Source: a virus. From it: a stretch of 64,000 bases of DNA. The notes under the pieces are model-generated. The model had not been told where the DNA came from. It did not search any database and saw only the letters and a list, made by a program, of their open reading frames with translations. The stretch spans positions 1-64,000 of IMG/VR virus record IMGVR_UViG_3300043409_000956, one strand, 5' to 3'. A program made the translations under genes and the position numbers. Positions within the stretch are counted from its first letter, which is position 1, and each line of letters begins with the position of its first letter. Of this stretch, positions 36,437 to 46,565 are shown one piece after another.

Positions 36437-37068
36437 TGAGTATGCGTGATCTATTAACCCAGCTGTCAGCGTTGGAAGAAGGTTCCAAGGTTCGATTTGC
36501 CGGCGAGCCCAAACAACGGCCCGGCGATCAAGTGCGTGGCACAGATCGGGCCGTGGGTAAAAAAGGTCAACATCCATTTCAAAATCGCTTGGTTGGTGGT
36601 GAAAGCATCCTGCGTGATTTAGAAGCCGCATTGCACGAAACACCTGTTAGAGACTTGATGCGTGAGTATCAAGACTTTGTCAACGAAGCTCCTGTTCCTC
36701 CCGTGCCCGCTCCAGCAGGTCAACAACAAAATCCCAATCCCAATCCCAATCAACCAAATCAAGATCCAGCAATTTTAGCCGCACAGGCCAAACTTGCACA
36801 ACAACAAAAAACCAAACAAGATGCCGCATTGCAACAAGGTATCTCTAAATTAAAATCAGCTGGTGCTGATGTTGACATGCAGACCATGAATGACAAAAAC
36901 AATGATCTAGCGCCGGTATTAGCACCCATCATGAGCAACCCACAGCTACAAGGCAAATTCCAAGAATTAATCAAACAGGCCAATGCCGAGCAAAAGAAAC
37001 AACAACAAGCACAACAGACTGCCGTGCCCGCAGGTGCTGTTGGCGCACCAGTTCCAGGACAGAAATAA
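36436..37068 (+). CDS. Hypothetical Gln/Pro-rich protein (possible internal head protein)
   Basis: 210-aa ORF with low-complexity Q/P/N segments. Confidence 0.65.
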   Translation: MSMRDLLTQLSALEEGSKVRFAGEPKQRPGDQVRGTDRAVGKKGQHPFQNRLVGGESILRDLEAALHETPVRDLMREYQDFVNEAPVPPVPAPAGQQQNPNPNPNQPNQDPAILAAQAKLAQQQKTKQDAALQQGISKLKSAGADVDMQTMNDKNNDLAPVLAPIMSNPQLQGKFQELIKQANAEQKKQQQAQQTAVPAGAVGAPVPGQK

Positions 37069-37069
37069 T

Positions 37070-39604
37070 ATGAACTTATACGACCTATCTCATCCTAGCA
37101 AAAAGAAAAAACAACAACTAGCCATGGAAAGCCGCCTGGCTGAATTTGCACCACCTGGTGGAGATGATGGCGGTCCCGACGAAGATGAGATACTATTCAA
37201 ACTAGCCAAACAATGGTGGCTTGGCACTGAACAAGACATGATTCGTGTGGAACGCACACTAGCATCAATGGGTTGGGAAATTGGTGAAGATGAAGGCAGT
37301 TATGACGACGGTGGTGTGTTTGTTGTACGTGCCGGTGATGTCAACGGTAAAAGTTATCAGTCATGGCCGCATGAGGAATTAGTAACGGAAGGTGCCACGG
37401 TAACAACAACCCCTGGATCCGTTGAGCCAGGTGGTGCAGTAGACAACTTTAAACAACAGATGGCCAACAATACTGAACTTGCATATCAGAAAAAACAACA
37501 AGGCATGGCCGAAGGTGACACTGTAGTCAAACACCGTATCGGCCTAACTGTCACAGACCCCAACCACCCCATGGCGAGCAAGCGCAACGAACCCTTTCAA
37601 CGGACTGTGCGTGTGCCCGGCGATGATCCTGCCAAGGCCATCAATGCGGCCATTGCACACTATCGCCGCAAAGGTTACAAAGTGCATGACCATCACTACA
37701 TGGGCACAGTGGACTATACCATAGACGAAGCGGCACCCGATTGGTTGAGACGCACAGCCGGTGCGGCCACAGGTGCATTGGCCGGTGTTGGTGCAAGTTT
37801 CCCCGGTGCGGCCATTGCAGGTCCCATTGGTGGTGCAGTGGCAGGTGCATACGGAGCCAAAGCCGGATATGATTTAGGTGCCGATGCCGCTGACTGGGTA
37901 TATGACAAAGTCACTGGCGAACGAGTTCCGGCAGACAAGACCGAGGTTGATGAAGCATTAACAATGAAGCATCAGCGAGCTCATACAACTCAAAGACGCC
38001 CCGACATCAGCAATAGCCTGGCCGATAGAGACTTTGACATGTCAGAGAAACCCAATGTTGCCAAGAGTGCAGATGGTCACCCCACAGTCAAGTGGCGTCA
38101 TCATGGCCATGCCGGACATACTAGAGTTGAGCCCACACTGAACCCGACCACAGTGCAACGCAAGGACACAAGACCCATACCATCTTTCTTGAAGAAAGGC
38201 ATGGCGGAAGACGCAGAAAACTTTAACGGCATTGAGTTATCAATGAAGATACAACTCCAAGATGTTGAATATGTTGATGATGAAGATTATGATAATCAAG
38301 TAATATATGTCACTGCTAGTAGCAACGGTAGGGAACTGGGGCATGTGTTATTTTCGTTTGATGGTGAGTATTTAATGCCTCAGGATTTAGAAGTAGAAGA
38401 AAAGTATCGTGGACAGGGCATTGCTCAAACAATGTATGATTATGTAAAGAGCAAAGGATATAAAATACGCCGCAGTGGACAACAAACTGATGCAGGCGCT
38501 GGATTTTGGGACAAACATAAACCTGGAAAAAATGTCTGGGAACAAGGTGTGGCGGAAGGCTCACTAAACGAATTTGCACCAGATGGCTTTAACGGTGATG
38601 ACGATGAAGGATTCAGTCCGGAAATTGCCAAGATGGCGTATGATGCTGGTAGTGTCAAGGGCGTGAGCCTTGCTGACGGTGCTACATTAGCCAGAGCAAT
38701 GGCGATAACGGAGTGGGACAAACAAGACGGTGGCATTTACACCCAGCACTTTGCAAAAGGCTTCAAAGCAGGTCGTATGAATAAAATCAATCACCACAAT
38801 AAACAATACAATCTCAACTTGAAGTTGATGAAAGATGGTAGCATTAGACGCGGTCAGCAAGGTGTGGCGGAAGGTTCATTAGAAGAAGATGAATATGATA
38901 AAATGCTAAGAGATTTGTTGAAGGCAAGACCTGACTTAACTAAAAAATATGCCAAAGATGTTCAAAAGTCAAAAGATATTGAAAGTGGCAAAGAGTTAAA
39001 CAAACTTGTTAAAAAGAATCCTGGTGTATTGAAAACATACAGTGATGCTGTAAAGAGAGATAAGAAACTAGGTGTGGCGGAAGGTGGATACCGTCAAGGT
39101 TTTGCAGATCCCAACGCACCCAGTCTAGGTGGCAGTCGTAGAAAAGATGACGAAGGCAACTCAGAGTTTGATGACCGTCAGCGTAGACAAACCGGAATGA
39201 TATTCTACAAGGTTGACGACGCCGAACTAGCACAACAACTAGGACTCAAACAAACTCGTGCAGGCAAGTGGTATTTGCGTACAGGTAACAGACATGCACA
39301 ACAGACTGCTGACCGTGCATTTGGCCTGGGACGCATTTGGTATCCAAAGAATGAAACTGTAGAGTCAGAAGAGCTCGGCGAACTCAGCAATGAGTTGTTG
39401 GGTCGTTACAAAAAAGAACTAGGTATCCGTGCTAGTGCCGCAGATCGAGCAGGCAACTTTGACAAAGGTCACGAATACTTTAAAAAAATCAACCGAGCAA
39501 CTGTTCGCCAAGGTGATAATGATGCTCGCAGACACGCAGAAAAAGAAAACGATGTAATGGAAACTCGTTTAAATATGATGCGTAAGGCAGGATACGATCT
39601 ATGA
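37070..39604 (+). CDS. Modular polyprotein-like protein (about 844 aa) with glycine-zipper and GNAT acetyltransferase modules separated by G(V/M)AE repeats
   Basis: ATG at 37070; GNAT motif A VEEKYRGQGIAQTMY...QTDAGAGFW; five G(V/M)AE(G/D) junctions. Confidence 0.75.
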   Translation: MNLYDLSHPSKKKKQQLAMESRLAEFAPPGGDDGGPDEDEILFKLAKQWWLGTEQDMIRVERTLASMGWEIGEDEGSYDDGGVFVVRAGDVNGKSYQSWPHEELVTEGATVTTTPGSVEPGGAVDNFKQQMANNTELAYQKKQQGMAEGDTVVKHRIGLTVTDPNHPMASKRNEPFQRTVRVPGDDPAKAINAAIAHYRRKGYKVHDHHYMGTVDYTIDEAAPDWLRRTAGAATGALAGVGASFPGAAIAGPIGGAVAGAYGAKAGYDLGADAADWVYDKVTGERVPADKTEVDEALTMKHQRAHTTQRRPDISNSLADRDFDMSEKPNVAKSADGHPTVKWRHHGHAGHTRVEPTLNPTTVQRKDTRPIPSFLKKGMAEDAENFNGIELSMKIQLQDVEYVDDEDYDNQVIYVTASSNGRELGHVLFSFDGEYLMPQDLEVEEKYRGQGIAQTMYDYVKSKGYKIRRSGQQTDAGAGFWDKHKPGKNVWEQGVAEGSLNEFAPDGFNGDDDEGFSPEIAKMAYDAGSVKGVSLADGATLARAMAITEWDKQDGGIYTQHFAKGFKAGRMNKINHHNKQYNLNLKLMKDGSIRRGQQGVAEGSLEEDEYDKMLRDLLKARPDLTKKYAKDVQKSKDIESGKELNKLVKKNPGVLKTYSDAVKRDKKLGVAEGGYRQGFADPNAPSLGGSRRKDDEGNSEFDDRQRRQTGMIFYKVDDAELAQQLGLKQTRAGKWYLRTGNRHAQQTADRAFGLGRIWYPKNETVESEELGELSNELLGRYKKELGIRASAADRAGNFDKGHEYFKKINRATVRQGDNDARRHAEKENDVMETRLNMMRKAGYDL
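37498..39085 (+). repeat. Dispersed in-frame direct repeat AGG(T/C)(G/A)TGGC(G/C)GAAG, five copies
   Basis: AGGTGTGGCGGAAGG is identical at about 38545, 38860 and 39070; variants AGGCATGGCGGAAGA at about 38197 and AGGCATGGCCGAAGG at 37501. Confidence 0.85.
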
Positions 39605-40032
39605 CACTATCAGAAACTACAAAAATAGCATTTGCTAGCGAATATACCTTTTATTTGAAGGCACACAACTTTCACTGGAATGTGGAAGGTGCTGACTTCC
39701 TAGAACATCACCAGTTGTTTGGCATGATCTACGAAGAAGTATACGGTGCCATTGACGATTTTGCAGAAAAGATTCGCGGCATCGGTAGTTATGTGCCAGC
39801 CAGCTACACCAGATTCAGTCAATTGAGTCAAATTGGTGACGAGACCAACATACTCAGCCCGGGTGCCATGTTGCATGAACTATCAGAAGACAATGAAAAA
39901 ATGTTGTTGGTACTGAAGATGGCTTATGATGCAGCCGAACAAGCCGGCGAGCATGGATTCTCAAACTTCTTAGCTGAACGGTTAGATGCACATCGTAAAC
40001 ACGGTTGGATGTTGAGAGCAAGTCTAAAATAA
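39601..40032 (+). CDS. dps: Dps/ferritin-like DNA protection protein
   Basis: KAHNFHWNVEG.DF...H.LF..IYEE...D.FAEKIR and H.K..WML motifs. Confidence 0.92.
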   Translation: MTLSETTKIAFASEYTFYLKAHNFHWNVEGADFLEHHQLFGMIYEEVYGAIDDFAEKIRGIGSYVPASYTRFSQLSQIGDETNILSPGAMLHELSEDNEKMLLVLKMAYDAAEQAGEHGFSNFLAERLDAHRKHGWMLRASLK

Positions 40033-40733
40033 TGTTGCCCATCATAGCAACATTGGTGATGACACATATCACCATCATATGTGTCACAGTTTTCCTACAC
40101 CGCGGACAAGCACATCGCGGATTGATATTTCATCCTGTACTTAGTCACTTTATGCGAGCCTGGCTTTGGCTAACAACCGGAATGGTCACTAAACAATGGG
40201 TAGCCATACATCGTAAGCATCATAGGTTCAGTGATGTTGCGGGTGACCCACATAGCCCACACGTATATGGAATTGGACGAGTATTGTTTAAAGGAGCAAT
40301 GTTATATCATGAAGCAAGCAAAGATACGGACATGGTTAATACATATGGTGCTGGTACTCCTGCTGATTGGATGGAGCTTCACGTATACCAGCCTTACTCT
40401 AGACTTGGCATTGGCATTCTCTTTGTGCTAGACGTCTTGGTGTTTGGATGGTGGGGTCCTGTAATTTGGGGCATCCAGATGATATGGATACCGTTTTGGG
40501 CAGCCGGAGTCATAAACGGCGTTGGTCATTGGATTGGGTATCGTAATGGTGAAACCAAAGATCATAGTCGTAACATCGTGCCTTGGGGCATTGTCGTTGG
40601 TGGAGAGGAGTTGCACAACAATCACCACCTGAACCCAGCAAGTCCCAGGCTCAGCAAGACCTGGTTTGAATTTGATGCAGGCTGGATGTACATAAATATT
40701 TTTAAATCGCTTGGACTACTTAAAATTAAATGA
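40032..40733 (+). CDS. Acyl-lipid/acyl-CoA delta-9 fatty acid desaturase
   Basis: Histidine boxes HRGQAH, HRKHH and HNNHH; DPHSP; GEEL. Confidence 0.92.
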   Translation: MLPIIATLVMTHITIICVTVFLHRGQAHRGLIFHPVLSHFMRAWLWLTTGMVTKQWVAIHRKHHRFSDVAGDPHSPHVYGIGRVLFKGAMLYHEASKDTDMVNTYGAGTPADWMELHVYQPYSRLGIGILFVLDVLVFGWWGPVIWGIQMIWIPFWAAGVINGVGHWIGYRNGETKDHSRNIVPWGIVVGGEELHNNHHLNPASPRLSKTWFEFDAGWMYINIFKSLGLLKIK

Positions 40734-41359
40734 CATTTTTCTATAAAGAATTAGACCTGCCACCCATACCAGAAGAATTACTAGCACATTTGCCCGAGAT
40801 CAGCGATGAGACAACTGCAAAAGATATCGGATATGGATACAGACATTTTAAAAATGGTGTAGAGTTGCATGCCTGCACCTACTCGTGGACTGTGATCAAC
40901 GAAGGAATAATGTTGCCATGGTTAAAACAAAATATACTGCCGATACAAAAACATTTAGCAAATGCCACAGTCGATATTCCAGTATACATGCAGACCGCGA
41001 CTCCGAGACACCCAGAAGGTGGGGTACATATTGTGCATTCTGATTTCAAAAGAATTGCCGGACTAAATTATCATTGGGCTCTGGGCGGTGACGCTGTTGT
41101 TAATCGATGGTACAAAGAAAAAGGCAAACCCTTACTGCGCCGTAAAACACAACGTGGGCGACAGTCGGATTCCGGGCGTGTTAAATATGATGATTTAGAA
41201 ATATTAGAAGAAGTTATTATAAAAAAGAATTGTTGGTATCTTATCAACGTGGCCTGCTTGCATGATGTACAAAACATCACCAGCACAAGACAAGGTATAA
41301 CAGTTCCATTTATTTCCAACAAAGTGTTGGAGTTGGCAGGTTTTACAGAACACCCTTAG
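40730..41359 (+). CDS. Hypothetical protein (possible double-stranded beta-helix/2OG-oxygenase fold)
   Basis: HSD...LNY...LHDV...R pattern; ends at a UAG inside a structured element. Confidence 0.55.
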   Translation: MTFFYKELDLPPIPEELLAHLPEISDETTAKDIGYGYRHFKNGVELHACTYSWTVINEGIMLPWLKQNILPIQKHLANATVDIPVYMQTATPRHPEGGVHIVHSDFKRIAGLNYHWALGGDAVVNRWYKEKGKPLLRRKTQRGRQSDSGRVKYDDLEILEEVIIKKNCWYLINVACLHDVQNITSTRQGITVPFISNKVLELAGFTEHP

Positions 41360-41448
41360 GACCGTAACTTAGGTTACGTGGGTGACCCGGCTGCTGGGTT
41401 CCAAATGTGGGAGTCGTGCCCCATCAAGCATTTGGTGAAGTGAGCACT
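41351..41448 (+). ncRNA. Candidate structured RNA (multi-stem, GC-rich), family unrecognised
   Basis: Stems CACCC/GGGTG, CGTAAC/GTTACG, ACCCG/TGGGT, CCAAATG/CATTTGG and TGGG/CCCA, followed by a T-run. Confidence 0.6.
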
Positions 41449-41481
41449 ATTTTTTTCTAAAGAATTGTGTTATAATCAATA

Positions 41482-42024
41482 ATGAAATCTGATCAATGGG
41501 CAATTACTCTCCCGCCAAGCAAGGACACAATAATCAGTAGCGCCGATTATCGTACATTGAAATTTGTACAGCTACTTGTTAGTAAAATGATTAACATATC
41601 TGTTGCGGAATTGAAAAAAAGTCCTAAACTAATTCTGTCAGATCAAGAACAAATAATCAATCTCATTTACCAAATAGTCAATGTTGAGTTAACTGGTATA
41701 GATACGTATAAGACTATTAGACAAGATCTTTATTATGTACACCATATTTCGGTAGATGTTACCAAAGAGTTCCTTACTATTGTCGGCGGTGTCGATACTG
41801 TCGTCGAACTTGCACATCAGTCCGAAATTAATAACTTAACTCAGTATATAGAACATTGTGATAATCATAAAAGTTTTGTTTTCAACTTGCTATACAATAC
41901 AGATTACAATAAATCTGCTGTTGAAATTTACAAATGGTTTCTCAACGAATTAACAAAATATCCGCCTGACACTAGTTATGTATCGTACAACCTGAATAAA
42001 CTGTTAAGTAACATTAACCTATGA
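41482..42024 (+). CDS. Hypothetical protein (AT-rich)
   Basis: 180-aa ORF after an extended -10 element (TGTTATAAT). Confidence 0.6.
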   Translation: MKSDQWAITLPPSKDTIISSADYRTLKFVQLLVSKMINISVAELKKSPKLILSDQEQIINLIYQIVNVELTGIDTYKTIRQDLYYVHHISVDVTKEFLTIVGGVDTVVELAHQSEINNLTQYIEHCDNHKSFVFNLLYNTDYNKSAVEIYKWFLNELTKYPPDTSYVSYNLNKLLSNINL

Positions 42025-43202
42025 ACAGCGACGTTAATACATTAATAAAATCCAATAGCACATTAACATTGAGGCTATCTACACCTATCAACAACATAAA
42101 AGGTAGATATTGGATTAATCTAAGAACTATGTTGTTTGGAGTCACCGACATTAGAGCCAGAGTCGGAACTTTTAGTAACCCGTGGTCAACTGAATTGTCT
42201 GACACTTACCGAGTGCCTCCGTTAATTTATATAAATGATAAACTCAAAGATATAGTTGACGCAAGAGCTGTTGAATTAAATCAGTATGCCAAAAAAACCA
42301 ACAAACGAATATTAATACAATGGAGCGGTGGTATAGATTCGACGTTGGTTCTTTCTGCATTTATTAAAAACATATCAGCGGCTGATTTATTAAATGTTTC
42401 TGTTATTCTAACACTTAATTCAATCATTGAAAATTATGACTTTTACTGTACACAAATAGCAGGAAAGATATCATGTATAAATTGGTTAGATATTGAGATA
42501 ACCGACGATGTACTAAGAAATAATATCATTCTACACGGAGACCCGGCTGATTGTTTATTTGGTCCCAGTATATCAATGTACCAATCATTGATGCACGATA
42601 ATACTCATTTAGCACCATTTAAAGATAATATAAACTTAGTTGCAAGAACTATAGATCGTTCAAAACTTGATGTTGTAAACAAATATCAAATTCGAGGATT
42701 TGGTAAATGGTATGCTGAAAAAATAACTGATAATCTATTGGAGATTGCACCTGACAATATTACCAGTATTGCTGATTGGTGGTGGTGGCACTATTTTAAT
42801 TTTAAATGGCAATTTAGCCTATCAAGACCTTTCCTACGCAGAAGAACAAATGGTAACGAAGACGTTGGGTTATCTCCGGTCCTTGTTACAGAATTTTTGG
42901 AAACAGCTTTTTTTAATACAGACCGTTTCCAGCAGTGGAGTTATAGTAACTTGCCATATCTAGTGGGAAATGATATAAAAAATCACAAACAAGAAGCCAA
43001 ACAATACATTTACGAATTAGACAAGAATCAAAAATATTTAAGTTGTAAAACCAAAGTAGAGTCCATGCCGGTGTATGATCACGGGCTTGTACTAAACTTA
43101 CGTAGACCAATAATGTGGGATCAGCAATGGAAAGGCTATCATACAAACTATCCAGACTTGCTACCAACATGTGTAGAACATTTAGAAAAATATAAAGGTT
43201 AA
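42021..43202 (+). CDS. PP-loop (adenine nucleotide alpha-hydrolase) family protein
   Basis: WSGGIDST motif; HGDPADCLFG resembles asparagine synthase G.G.D.LFG. Confidence 0.65.
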   Translation: MNSDVNTLIKSNSTLTLRLSTPINNIKGRYWINLRTMLFGVTDIRARVGTFSNPWSTELSDTYRVPPLIYINDKLKDIVDARAVELNQYAKKTNKRILIQWSGGIDSTLVLSAFIKNISAADLLNVSVILTLNSIIENYDFYCTQIAGKISCINWLDIEITDDVLRNNIILHGDPADCLFGPSISMYQSLMHDNTHLAPFKDNINLVARTIDRSKLDVVNKYQIRGFGKWYAEKITDNLLEIAPDNITSIADWWWWHYFNFKWQFSLSRPFLRRRTNGNEDVGLSPVLVTEFLETAFFNTDRFQQWSYSNLPYLVGNDIKNHKQEAKQYIYELDKNQKYLSCKTKVESMPVYDHGLVLNLRRPIMWDQQWKGYHTNYPDLLPTCVEHLEKYKG

Positions 43203-43901: not shown

Positions 43902-46565
43902 ATGAGTTATGTAGACGCTCTCTTTGATAGAGCAAAAGATAAGATACACATAGTTGAGCGAGTCAACGGAGAACGAGTATATCGTGAATATCCTGCAGAC
44001 TATATCTTTTACTATGATGATCCCCGCGGCAAGTTTCGCACCATATACGACACCCCGGTTGGCAGGTTCAGTAGTCGCAACAGCAAAGAATATCACAAAG
44101 AACTAAAAGCCAACTCAGGTAAGCGACTATGGGAAAGTGACATCAATCCCATCTTCCGATGTCTTGAGACCAATTACCTTGGTGTACCTAGTCCCAAATT
44201 ACACACAGCCTTTTTCGATATTGAGGTGGACTTTGATCCCTTGCGAGGCTTTAGTAAACCCGAAGATCCCTTTAATCCTATCACTGCTATTTCAGTTTAC
44301 CTAGACTGGATGGATAAACTAGTCACGCTGGTTATTCCTCCCAAAAGTTATTCGTGGGAAACTGCACAGGAAATTTGTAACAGGTATGATAACTGTTTCT
44401 TGTTTGAACGAGAAGCAGACATGTTGGACACATTTCTTGACTTGATTGATGACGCAGATATTTTAAGTGGATGGAACAGTGAAGGCTTTGATATTCCCTA
44501 CACTGTCATGCGTATTCAACGTGTACTAAGCAAGGATGATACAAGACGCTTTTGTCTATGGGGACAACTGCCCAAGCAAAGAACTTTTGAACGCTTCGGT
44601 GCTGAAAATTTGACCTTTGACTTGATTGGTCGTGTGCATATGGACTATATGCAACTGTACCGCAAGTACACCTATGAGGAACGACACAGTTATAGTCTAG
44701 ACGCAATTGGTGAATATGAAGAATGTGGCAGTAAGGTTGCTTACGAAGGCACATTGGATCAACTTTACAATAAAGATTTCCCGACGTTTATTGAATATAA
44801 CCGACAAGATACCATGCTAATTGCTAAGTTTGATAAGAAGCTCCGCTTCTTGGATCTAGCAAACGAACTTGCTCATGACAACACGGTGTTGTTACCAACC
44901 ACAATGGGTGCGGTTGCAGTAACAGAGCAGGCTATCATTAATGAAGCTCATCAGCGTGGTATGATTGTTCCTAATAGAAAGAGCAAAGATGACCCAAGAG
45001 AAACGCAAGCCGCAGGTGCCTATGTTGCTTACCCCAAAAGGGGAGTACACGAATACATCGGTGCGATCGACATCAACAGTCTCTACCCCTCGGCTATTAG
45101 AGCCCTTAACATGGGCCCAGAAACAATCGTTGGGCAACTCCGGACCACAATGACCGACCACTACATCAAGGAAAAGATGACAGCAGGTTCGTCTTTTGCT
45201 GATGCGTGGGAAAATATGTTTGGTAGTTTGGAATATCAGGCAGTCATGAACAACGAGCTTGGTACTGAGATTACCATCGACTGGGCCAGTGGTGAAGAAA
45301 CTGTACACAGTGCGGCTGAAGTCTGGCGATTAATATTCAACGGTAACCAACCGTGGACACTCAGTGCCAATGGCACTATATTTAGATATGACATGAAGGG
45401 TATTATTCCCGGCTTGTTGGAAAGGTGGTATGCAGAACGTAAAGAAATGCAAGCAAAAAAGAAGACCGCAGAAACTGCTGAAGACACGGCGTTCTGGGAT
45501 AAACGCCAACTCGTTAAAAAAATTAACCTTAATTCGCTCTATGGGGCTATCCTCAACCCACATTGCAGGTTCTTTGACCAAAGAATTGGCCAAAGTACGA
45601 CACTTACTGGTAGGATCATTGCCAAACACATGGACGCCACAGTTAACCAAGCAATTACAGGCGACTACGACCACGTTGGTTCGAGCATTATCTATGGCGA
45701 CACGGACTCGGTATACTTTACAGCGTGGCCCGCGGTCAAAGCGGAAGTAGAATCCGGTGCAATGGAATGGAACAAAGACATTGCTGTACAACTGTATGAT
45801 ACCATTGCCGATGGTGTAAATGAATCGTTCCCAGGGTTTATGGAACGGGCCTGTCATTGCCCTAGAGAAATGGGTGAGATCATCATGGGTGGTCGAGAGC
45901 TTGTGGCTCGCAAAGGTTTGTTTATTAAGAAGAAGCGTTATGCTGTGTTGATTTACGATATGGAAAATCATCGATTAGATGTAAACGGTAAGCCAGGCAA
46001 AGTAAAAGCCATGGGTCTAGACTTGAAGCGTAGTGATACTCCCAAAATTGTACAAGAGTTCTTGAGTGAAATACTTATGGATGTACTAACCACAGACGAT
46101 GCTAGAGAAGTAGTCATCGACAAAGTACGTGAATTTAAACTTGAATTTCAGAAACGTCCGGCTTGGGAAAAGGGCACTCCCAAGCGTGTGAACAACTTGA
46201 CCAAGTATACCGCAGAAGAAGCCAGACTAGGCAAAGCCAACATGCCGGGACATGTACGAGCCGCAATGAATTGGAACAATCTAAAGCGTATGCATGGTGA
46301 CAACTATTCAACCAGTATTGTTGATGGTATGAAGACCATTGTTTGTAAATTACGAGATAATCCCTTGGGATATACCAGTGTTGGTTATCCCACAGACGAA
46401 ACACATATACCACAGTGGTTCAAAGATCTTCCGTTTGATCAAGACAGTATGGAAACAGGCATTGTGGATCAAAAGGTAGAAAACTTGTTGGGTGTACTAG
46501 AATGGCAAATTGCCGACAGTACAGACATCAAGTCAACATTTGACTCATTGTTTACTTGGGAATAA
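43902..46565 (+). CDS. Family B DNA polymerase (T4 gp43-like)
   Basis: Exo I FDIEV, Exo II GWNSEGFDIPY, Exo III YNRQD; polymerase motifs DINSLYPS, KINLNSLYG, YGDTDS and KKRY. Confidence 0.97.
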   Translation: MSYVDALFDRAKDKIHIVERVNGERVYREYPADYIFYYDDPRGKFRTIYDTPVGRFSSRNSKEYHKELKANSGKRLWESDINPIFRCLETNYLGVPSPKLHTAFFDIEVDFDPLRGFSKPEDPFNPITAISVYLDWMDKLVTLVIPPKSYSWETAQEICNRYDNCFLFEREADMLDTFLDLIDDADILSGWNSEGFDIPYTVMRIQRVLSKDDTRRFCLWGQLPKQRTFERFGAENLTFDLIGRVHMDYMQLYRKYTYEERHSYSLDAIGEYEECGSKVAYEGTLDQLYNKDFPTFIEYNRQDTMLIAKFDKKLRFLDLANELAHDNTVLLPTTMGAVAVTEQAIINEAHQRGMIVPNRKSKDDPRETQAAGAYVAYPKRGVHEYIGAIDINSLYPSAIRALNMGPETIVGQLRTTMTDHYIKEKMTAGSSFADAWENMFGSLEYQAVMNNELGTEITIDWASGEETVHSAAEVWRLIFNGNQPWTLSANGTIFRYDMKGIIPGLLERWYAERKEMQAKKKTAETAEDTAFWDKRQLVKKINLNSLYGAILNPHCRFFDQRIGQSTTLTGRIIAKHMDATVNQAITGDYDHVGSSIIYGDTDSVYFTAWPAVKAEVESGAMEWNKDIAVQLYDTIADGVNESFPGFMERACHCPREMGEIIMGGRELVARKGLFIKKKRYAVLIYDMENHRLDVNGKPGKVKAMGLDLKRSDTPKIVQEFLSEILMDVLTTDDAREVVIDKVREFKLEFQKRPAWEKGTPKRVNNLTKYTAEEARLGKANMPGHVRAAMNWNNLKRMHGDNYSTSIVDGMKTIVCKLRDNPLGYTSVGYPTDETHIPQWFKDLPFDQDSMETGIVDQKVENLLGVLEWQIADSTDIKSTFDSLFTWE

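Follow-up and report, generated by a model that had tools for sequence, protein, structure and literature searches.

We identified a compact structured RNA in the window, i.e., the 64,000-nucleotide (nt) stretch spanning positions 1 to 64,000 of the IMG/VR virus record IMGVR_UViG_3300043409_000956, and found that it belongs to a new, single-copy family of ~95–105-nt RNAs in uncultured freshwater jumbo myoviruses. The whole RNA element lies on the + strand at 41348..41449 and folds into five helices, P1, P1a, P2, P3 and P3a, followed by a short 3′ tail. Its 5′ domain shows significant similarity to the antisense of the 23S ribosomal RNA (rRNA) of bacteria at helix 69 and the flank 3′ to that helix. 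The family is represented in >250 uncultured freshwater jumbo-phage contigs, and >250 distinct variants were collected.

Identification of the RNA family

The element sits between an open reading frame (ORF) for a 209-aa protein (40730..41359, + strand), the last four codons and stop of which lie inside the RNA, and a second ORF at 41482–42024. The letters of 41340–41460 agree with those quoted in the initial annotation, which had drawn attention to a GC-rich island in AT-rich surroundings and had proposed either an unrecognised ribozyme or noncoding RNA, or a stop-codon readthrough element. The island is readily seen as a local G+C peak of 0.54 at 41350–41449, against 0.27–0.41 downstream. 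Folding of the single sequence gives a stability not above that of shuffles (z −0.86 on the + strand and −0.33 on the − strand); folding energy alone thus gives no signal, and it is the relatives of the sequence that speak for a structure.

These relatives were gathered by three pattern scans that used different pairs of conserved blocks as anchors and yielded at least 119–120 loci per scan; the family counts rest on the matches listed by these scans, each a lower bound. A family covariance model, R1, built from 61 type-A members (the type to which the window copy belongs; see below), recovers the window element with 70.7 bits (E 2.8e-14) and no second hit in the window or in the whole 93-kb record (93,092 bases). 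The same pattern holds across the family, with exactly one copy in each of the 195 loci listed and one significant hit in each of five records of 262–353 kb, one of which is complete with terminal repeats (353 kb).

In the model-based alignment of the family (A3), 94.8% of cells are paired and double changes are present in 21 of the 28 pairs. None of 500 shuffles reaches this level of covariation, and sliding the pairing partners by one to three columns lowers the paired fraction to 29–46%. An independent, mostly type-B alignment (A2) agrees with A3. The covariation that the initial annotation had looked to homologues for is thus strong, and the same can be observed at short range: the 209-aa upstream protein, which has no Pfam or PHROG match, has three IMG/VR homologues of 52–71% identity (L001–L003), behind which the adjoining RNA is nearly unchanged. 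The RNA differences that do occur behind these homologues are compensatory, with L001 rebuilding both P2 and P3 from other letters.

Comparison with catalogued RNAs recovered no counterpart. Rfam 15 yielded no hit over the whole window at gathering thresholds, and scans up to E 10 over the window copy, one type-A copy and one type-B copy returned only noise of ≤21 bits outside the element; ARAGORN found 0 tRNA or tmRNA genes in the whole window. No Rfam hits were obtained to the known self-cleaving classes (hammerhead, twister, twister-sister, pistol, hatchet and HDV-like), and a literature search found no description of such an RNA. These results bear out the initial annotation in that the element matches neither a tRNA nor a hammerhead nor a simple terminator, nor any other family in the covariance-model search it had called for, and is an unrecognised noncoding RNA: a conserved, covarying family absent from Rfam 15.

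Fold of the RNA

The RNA begins with a 5′ domain (41351..41384, + strand) in which P1 (41351–41355 with 41380–41384) encloses the J1 loop and the hairpin P1a (41363–41368 with 41373–41378). Relatives show changes on both sides in all five P1 pairs, and P1a displays G-C/C-G covariation. The J1 loop reads UUAGGAC and contains the invariant core CUUAGG (41355–41360), which is also kept in members gathered without the core as a search anchor. The P2 hairpin follows directly (41385–41388 with 41396–41399; loop GGCUGCU, 41389–41395), being 100% paired, with double changes in three of its four pairs. The P3 domain (41401..41435, + strand) comprises P3 (41401–41407 with 41429–41435) enclosing P3a (41409–41411 with 41420–41422), which is capped by the loop AGUCGUGC (41412–41419); double changes occur in all 6 P3 pairs and in 3 P3a pairs. 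The initial annotation had named five stems, each of which is present and kept by covariation in relatives: CACCC/GGGTG corresponds to P1, CGTAAC/GTTACG to P1a, ACCC/GGGT to P2, CCAAATG/CATTTGG to P3 and GGG/CCC to P3a.

Beyond the helices, the 3′ tail AAGUGAGC (41438..41445, + strand) is nearly invariant, even in scans whose pattern did not demand it. Within it, A41443-G-C41445 pairs with G41390-C-U41392 of the P2 loop in 100% of members (PK1), with double changes from GC to CG or AU at two positions (L008, L009 and relatives), and on the strength of this covariation we regard PK1 as a proven pseudoknot. The tail segment G41440-U-G41442 is likewise 100% paired with C41415-G-U41417 of the P3a loop (PK2), its partner being CGU in type A and CGC in the type-B P3a loop. 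All of this variation is of the wobble to Watson-Crick kind and includes a GU-to-AC double change that occurs in two separate lineages; we regard PK2 as a probable pseudoknot, in which case the 3′ tail would bind both hairpin loops together. The two pseudoknots that the initial annotation had drawn are different ones and did not survive comparison. Its GTGC:GCAC pairing relies on bases after GAGC that vary in relatives, and its GAC:GTC pairing has no support, the GAC belonging to P1a in most members.

The inner P3 hairpin varies among relatives, which can be divided into type A (including the window copy), type B (with the loop AUUCGCUAC), type C and short forms. The short forms (79–85 nt; L223, L225, L226, L230, L232, L234, L242, L256, L257, L260, L266 and others) lack P1a, and in them P1 itself is the closing stem of a loop such as ACCUUAGGGCC. 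They keep P2, P3 and the tail, and thus define a minimal core with no need for the helix-69-like hairpin.

About 35 invariant positions of the family lie in loops and junctions. Such unpaired conservation, together with the size of about 100 nt, the pseudoknots, the phage setting and the position between genes of a polycistronic region, recalls the twister, pistol, hatchet and HDV-like ribozymes, which are likewise common in phage DNA. A self-cleaving or catalytic RNA that processes an early transcript between two genes would have to be a new class, as the phage RNA, unlike those ribozymes, matches none of their Rfam models. We consider this improbable: a general processing signal should recur, whereas the RNA is present in one copy per genome, and catalysis would leave its rRNA complementarity unexplained.

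The strand of the RNA follows from its variants. Of 164 variants, 127 have the more favourable fold on the + strand, whose mean advantage over the − strand is 4.75 kcal/mol, and G-U is the most frequent pair at several positions. The RNA is accordingly read from the + strand. A reading of the − strand as a sense mimic of helix 69 and of the 530 loop of 16S rRNA was ruled out by this folding asymmetry and by the conserved G-U pairs.

Similarity of the 5′ domain to antisense 23S rRNA

All rRNA comparisons were made against an E. coli rrn operon. The J1 recognition segment of the window copy, CCUUAGGACCGU (41354..41365, + strand), is the exact antisense of 23S positions 1919–1930 (12 nt), and a gapped alignment extends the similarity to 41378. 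A major type-A member (L013) is identical in 22 of 24 positions to the antisense of 23S 1909–1933; its local alignment score is 36, against 21.6 ± 2.3 for shuffles, none of 400 of which reaches it. Three further long-form members align to the same 23S site with scores of 30–32, equalled by 2–3 of 400 shuffles. Among 196 members gathered without a 5′-domain anchor, a Watson-Crick run of ≥12 nt to 23S 1919–1933 is present in 155 and one of ≥10 in 188. In type B, the loop UUCGCUACC is the antisense of the adjoining 23S 1929–1937. By alignment, helix 69 has its antisense image in P1a and the 3′ flank of the helix has its own in J1; the lone substituted position in the alignment of L013 faces U1915, which in mature rRNA is an m3-pseudouridine unable to pair. 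The duplex with 23S rRNA is predicted at −28 to −33 kcal/mol, compared with −3 to −6 for the domain's own fold. Since the stems of the family have freely diverged, identity to antisense 23S must be maintained by selection, for which pairing would be the simplest reason.

The CUUAG core of J1 fits YUNR by sequence, and at that level the element has what characterizes loop-presenting antisense RNAs, namely extended complementarity seeded from an exposed YUNR-type loop. A search for a target inside the phage itself found the complement of J1, across five genomes, only in the element and at one chance site, no more often than a reversed control word.

Several observations weigh against pairing with 23S rRNA. 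The alignment score of the window's own copy is 27, which 12 of 400 shuffles reach (p about 0.03), and an exact 12-mer match to either rrn strand occurs in 4–5% of dinucleotide shuffles; the case for 23S is thus carried by the family-level gapped alignment and not by the window copy. The complementarity is imperfect, given variants such as GGAAC, CCCUAGG and AACUUAGG and the short forms lacking P1a, and where P1a is present its covariation shows selection for the hairpin as such. The type-B loop may also pair with the tail. In the mature 50S subunit nucleotides 1920–1932 lie in or next to helices, so that access to them would need unfolding or nascent rRNA. A phage depends on working ribosomes, and the benefit of binding helix 69 is not obvious. 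The expression data consist of assembled contigs only, a weak form of evidence that is silent on ends and strand. A second rRNA complementarity also failed: CGGCUGCUGG is the antisense of 16S 518–527 in the 530 loop, and we rejected it as a candidate, matches of 10–11 nt being normal in shuffles and this one being broken by rare P2-loop variants that keep the internal pseudoknot with the tail. Full-length RNAduplex runs against rRNA, tried as well, gave meaningless long duplexes.

Two other explanations of the 23S likeness were weighed. The RNA could instead bind a phage or host protein or a small ligand, for which its invariant loops and double pseudoknot would form a three-dimensional surface, or act as a decoy, with the likeness being a captured rDNA fragment or chance. 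Its invariant loop and junction positions and two loop-tail pseudoknots amount to more architecture than pairing small RNAs usually need, and both the covariation of P1a as a hairpin and the retention of P2, P3 and the tail in forms without P1a would fit such a role. Against this, with freely diverged stems, a match of 22/24 to antisense 23S could not have lasted without selection; no protein family constantly adjoins the RNA; and a riboswitch in particular would call for a constant class of downstream gene and an expression platform, whereas the downstream genes come from at least 19 unrelated families. On balance we hold this explanation to be unlikely. The second concerns DNA: the − strand of the 5′ domain resembles 23S rDNA 1909–1933, a segment that overlaps the recognition site of I-CeuI, and the element could thus be a look-alike of the rDNA site for I-CeuI-type homing endonucleases, serving as target or decoy. 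The compensatory changes, conserved G-U pairs and strand asymmetry in folding point to selection on RNA, and the remainder of the element has no rDNA counterpart; a role at the DNA level is accordingly very improbable.

Proposed action on the host ribosome

As the most likely function, we propose a trans action of the RNA on 23S rRNA, for which its knotted 3′ domain would be a stable scaffold, a reading that the sequence comparisons make a serious possibility, if one somewhat short of an even chance. The RNA would be co-transcribed as the 3′ end of an upstream mRNA, whichever early or auxiliary gene happens to precede it. The knotted 3′ domain would then provide a stable, nuclease-resistant scaffold, and the 5′ domain the working end, whose invariant loop, (U)ACCUUAGGAC(C)G, would together with the next hairpin present the antisense image of 23S 1909–1933. 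The RNA would pair in trans with host 23S rRNA, as free 50S subunits or nascent 23S, and would in this way change how subunits join or how ribosomes are assembled during takeover. Helix 69 makes up the central bridge between the subunits and is in contact with tRNA and release factors. We suggest more tentatively that the exposed 5′ domain of the virus RNA hybridises with helix 69 and its 3′ flank, which would give the phage control over the joining of subunits, the assembly of ribosomes or the turnover of rRNA. A catalytic or recruiting activity might, in addition, reside in the knotted 3′ domain.

This proposal can be set beside several known systems. Like CopA/CopT of plasmid R1 and RNA I/RNA II of ColE1, the phage RNA is a folded RNA with a short U-turn-type loop, a possible pairing seed, and its P1a mirrors the target hairpin helix 69, which would permit a kissing start. 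Unlike the phage RNA, CopA and RNA I are encoded opposite their targets and are fully complementary to them; the phage RNA is far from its candidate target, with a complementarity of ~12–24 nt, and the phage records contain no further copy of the target word beyond chance. It further differs from them in its double-pseudoknot domain and in that the candidate target is an rRNA and not an mRNA or primer.

CpxQ and SroC are bacterial base-pairing small RNAs derived from 3′ untranslated regions (3′ UTRs). CisR (PMC13250501) can be considered together with them. As in these cases, the phage RNA lies directly past a stop codon, where it would form the 3′ end of a coding transcript, has no conserved promoter of its own and apparently functions independently of the parent gene. 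In contrast, the 3′-UTR-derived RNAs close with the usual terminator hairpin and U-tail and in most cases rely on Hfq, whereas the tail of the phage RNA folds back on the P2 loop and probably on the P3a loop, and a U-tract follows in only 43% of members.

A likeness to the H/ACA and C/D guide RNAs lies in the internal loop between two stems, which is complementary to universally conserved rRNA near the helix 69 pseudouridines. Unlike the guide RNAs, the phage RNA lacks the boxes of either class (ACA or C/D), as well as a K-turn and a two-sided guide pocket. Inspection of the alignments A1–A3 shows that the 3′ side of its internal loop is 2–6 nt long and that P2 comes directly after P1, which departs from the H/ACA form, with its ACA box 14–16 nt from the target position and its K-turn in the upper stem, and no Cbf5- or fibrillarin-type partner was found near the element. 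We know of no such guide partner in bacteria, which modify helix 69 without guides (RluD). The chloroplast RNA AS5 is a natural antisense RNA to 5S rRNA and is reported to destabilise it (PMC3017836). The phage RNA resembles AS5 in being a natural RNA complementary to a rRNA, and differs from it in that AS5 is encoded by the rRNA gene itself, read on its other strand, whereas the phage RNA is virus-encoded and has an elaborate fold of its own.

If the proposal is true, the RNA would be the first example of a natural antisense regulator that is encoded in trans and directed at a bacterial rRNA, and phages would be acting on the host ribosome through RNA and not protein, a new principle of host takeover. 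The candidate target site is identical in essentially all bacteria. The RNA would also offer a natural lead for the design of anti-ribosomal antisense molecules and a reason to seek anti-rRNA RNAs elsewhere. Whatever its function, it represents an RNA class of wide occurrence, deep conservation and intricate fold, found in hundreds of uncultured jumbo-phage contigs and having no catalogued relative; orphan RNA classes of such quality have repeatedly proved to be ribozymes, riboswitches or new regulators.

Overlap with the upstream stop codon

The TAG at 41357–41359, which lies in the J1 loop, ends the ORF 40730–41359, as the initial annotation had noted. It was also right that TAG is rare in the window, being the stop of one of the 58 + strand open frames of ≥150 codons (TAA 40, TGA 17, TAG 1), and that the frame beyond it stays open for 27 codons to a TGA. 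Taken together, the lone TAG among the long frames, its placement in a conserved loop and the sense codons behind it had suggested a stimulator of stop-codon readthrough, i.e., recoding. Comparison across the family speaks against this at each step: the element's TAG is used as the upstream stop in 27 of the 123 loci listed, the others stopping 9–22 nt earlier; in 29 distinct TAG-using elements the conserved P2 block falls in frames 0, 1 and 2 in 12, 9 and 8 cases, so that the frame test proposed in the initial annotation returns random frames; the extensions past the TAG in these elements range over 2–70 codons and are unrelated peptides; and the close relatives L001 and L002 change frame through indels. 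We therefore consider readthrough refuted by these comparisons, with next to no probability left to it, and the overlap of RNA and stop codon to be incidental, as would be expected of a by-product of tight gene packing. The TAG is rare in the window because this stop comes from the invariant CUUAGG of the RNA and not from recoding, and the 27 open codons reflect the G+C-rich stretch and not a coding extension. For annotation, this means that neither the unusual TAG stop nor the frame left open beyond it has any coding meaning.

The 3′ flank

The tail is followed by an A/U-rich, G-poor stretch (41446..41457, + strand), which here consists of ACUA and then seven T. Family-wide, the first position after GAGC is A in 72% of members, positions +2 to +6 are T-rich and G accounts for 2–9% over the first 9 nt. 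A U-tract follows the element in 106 of 246 members (43%), as against 14% at random sites. These features, along with the fact that the element always abuts a stop codon and that a promoter-like spacer often precedes the next gene, would be expected of a cis-acting 3′-end element, which could protect the upstream mRNA from exonucleases or serve as a pseudoknot-assisted terminator before the next promoter. On the other side, a consensus terminator scan of 40600–42100 found no terminator-like site, the T-run begins 14 nt past P3 and not within the 0–2 nt of a hairpin typical of an intrinsic terminator, and over half of the members have no U-tract. Moreover, the upstream gene is not conserved, the RNA occurs as a single copy in genomes of 260–350 kb with hundreds of gene ends, and such a role would leave the invariant loops and the 23S likeness unexplained. 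A cis-acting 3′-end function thus seems rather improbable to us.

No conserved promoter or other signal precedes the RNA: base composition is flat beyond ~12 nt upstream of the element across the family, and in the window the nearest + strand promoter-like site lies ~280 nt upstream, with none directly upstream of the element.

Phages carrying the RNA

The source of the window, the 93-kb IMG/VR record, is estimated to be 26% complete and is a fragment of a jumbo myovirus. Its family-B DNA polymerase (43902–46565) is 42–52% identical to those of the 350–490-kb jumbo myoviruses such as Phosso, Atu_ph07, CBB and GAP32. The three closest cultured relatives tested, chosen by DNA polymerase similarity, were Sinorhizobium phage Phosso, Agrobacterium phage Atu_ph07 and Pectobacterium phage CBB, and none of them gave a copy with model R1. 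Searches of 50,697 phage records by megablast, blastn and tblastn with the region, the upstream protein and two family members gave nothing useful, the sole BLAST hit, in a Stenotrophomonas phage, being a 23-nt chance match.

The sequencing runs containing this DNA are freshwater, lake and river metagenomes. In a lake metatranscriptome assembly (X19), a 154-nt contig carries a relative's copy of the RNA that corresponds to window positions 41347–41446; as an assembled contig from an RNA library, which can contain DNA, it provides weak evidence of expression. The flanks of this contig resemble those of L022/L027, and the adjoining coding sequence was not recovered in that run, an absence of cover that carries no weight.

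A search of representative genomes covering 185,579 species of bacteria and archaea gave one real hit, in a metagenome-assembled genome of Lishizhenia (Bacteroidota; L124, CAZHPL010000057.1, 1094–1198, − strand), where it lies on a 14.6-kb contig. The contig could derive from a phage and have been binned with the Lishizhenia genome, in which case it would be a possible hint of the host. Hits in metagenome-assembled genomes of Desulfobacteraceae and Deltaproteobacteria were chance matches in GC-rich DNA and not members of the family.

Gene neighbourhood

In the loci listed, the start of the element is always within ~10 nt of a stop codon. The upstream genes belong to at least 22 unrelated families, including ferritin-like proteins, fatty-acid desaturases, dCMP deaminases, radical SAM proteins, Fe-S assembly proteins, nucleases, ferredoxins and unknowns, and the downstream genes to the at least 19 families mentioned above, with the next start 15–200 nt downstream and often behind a promoter-like spacer. 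That each genome has a single copy, set among unrelated neighbours, speaks against a device common to gene ends and against a regulator of one particular gene, and for an RNA with a function of its own that would be the tail of whichever early transcript carries it.

In the window, a run of auxiliary-type genes (36983–40733) lies just upstream, comprising an 873-aa protein with a weak match to GNAT acetyltransferases, a ferritin-like protein (39601–40032) and a fatty-acid desaturase (40005–40733). Ferritin-like proteins and desaturases adjoin the RNA in other phages too, in differing orders. On the downstream side, within 41468–41484, the extended −10-like sequence TGTTATAAT, which the consensus promoter scan does not call, ends 5 nt before the ATG of ORF 41482–42024; the same motif is found in L003, 6 nt ahead of its ATG. 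This placement hints at a leaderless or very short-leader mRNA for ORF 41482–42024.

The commonest downstream neighbour, in 44 of the 118 loci listed, is a 99-aa protein (phrog_12534; e.g., L037 7627–7923, − strand), which is absent from the window and shows a weak match to the transcriptional-regulator family phrog_639. Its start lies 60–107 nt past the GGGAGUCGUGCCCC block, ~35–80 nt past the end of the RNA, and the spacer ahead of it is A-rich and TTGAC/TTGC-like.

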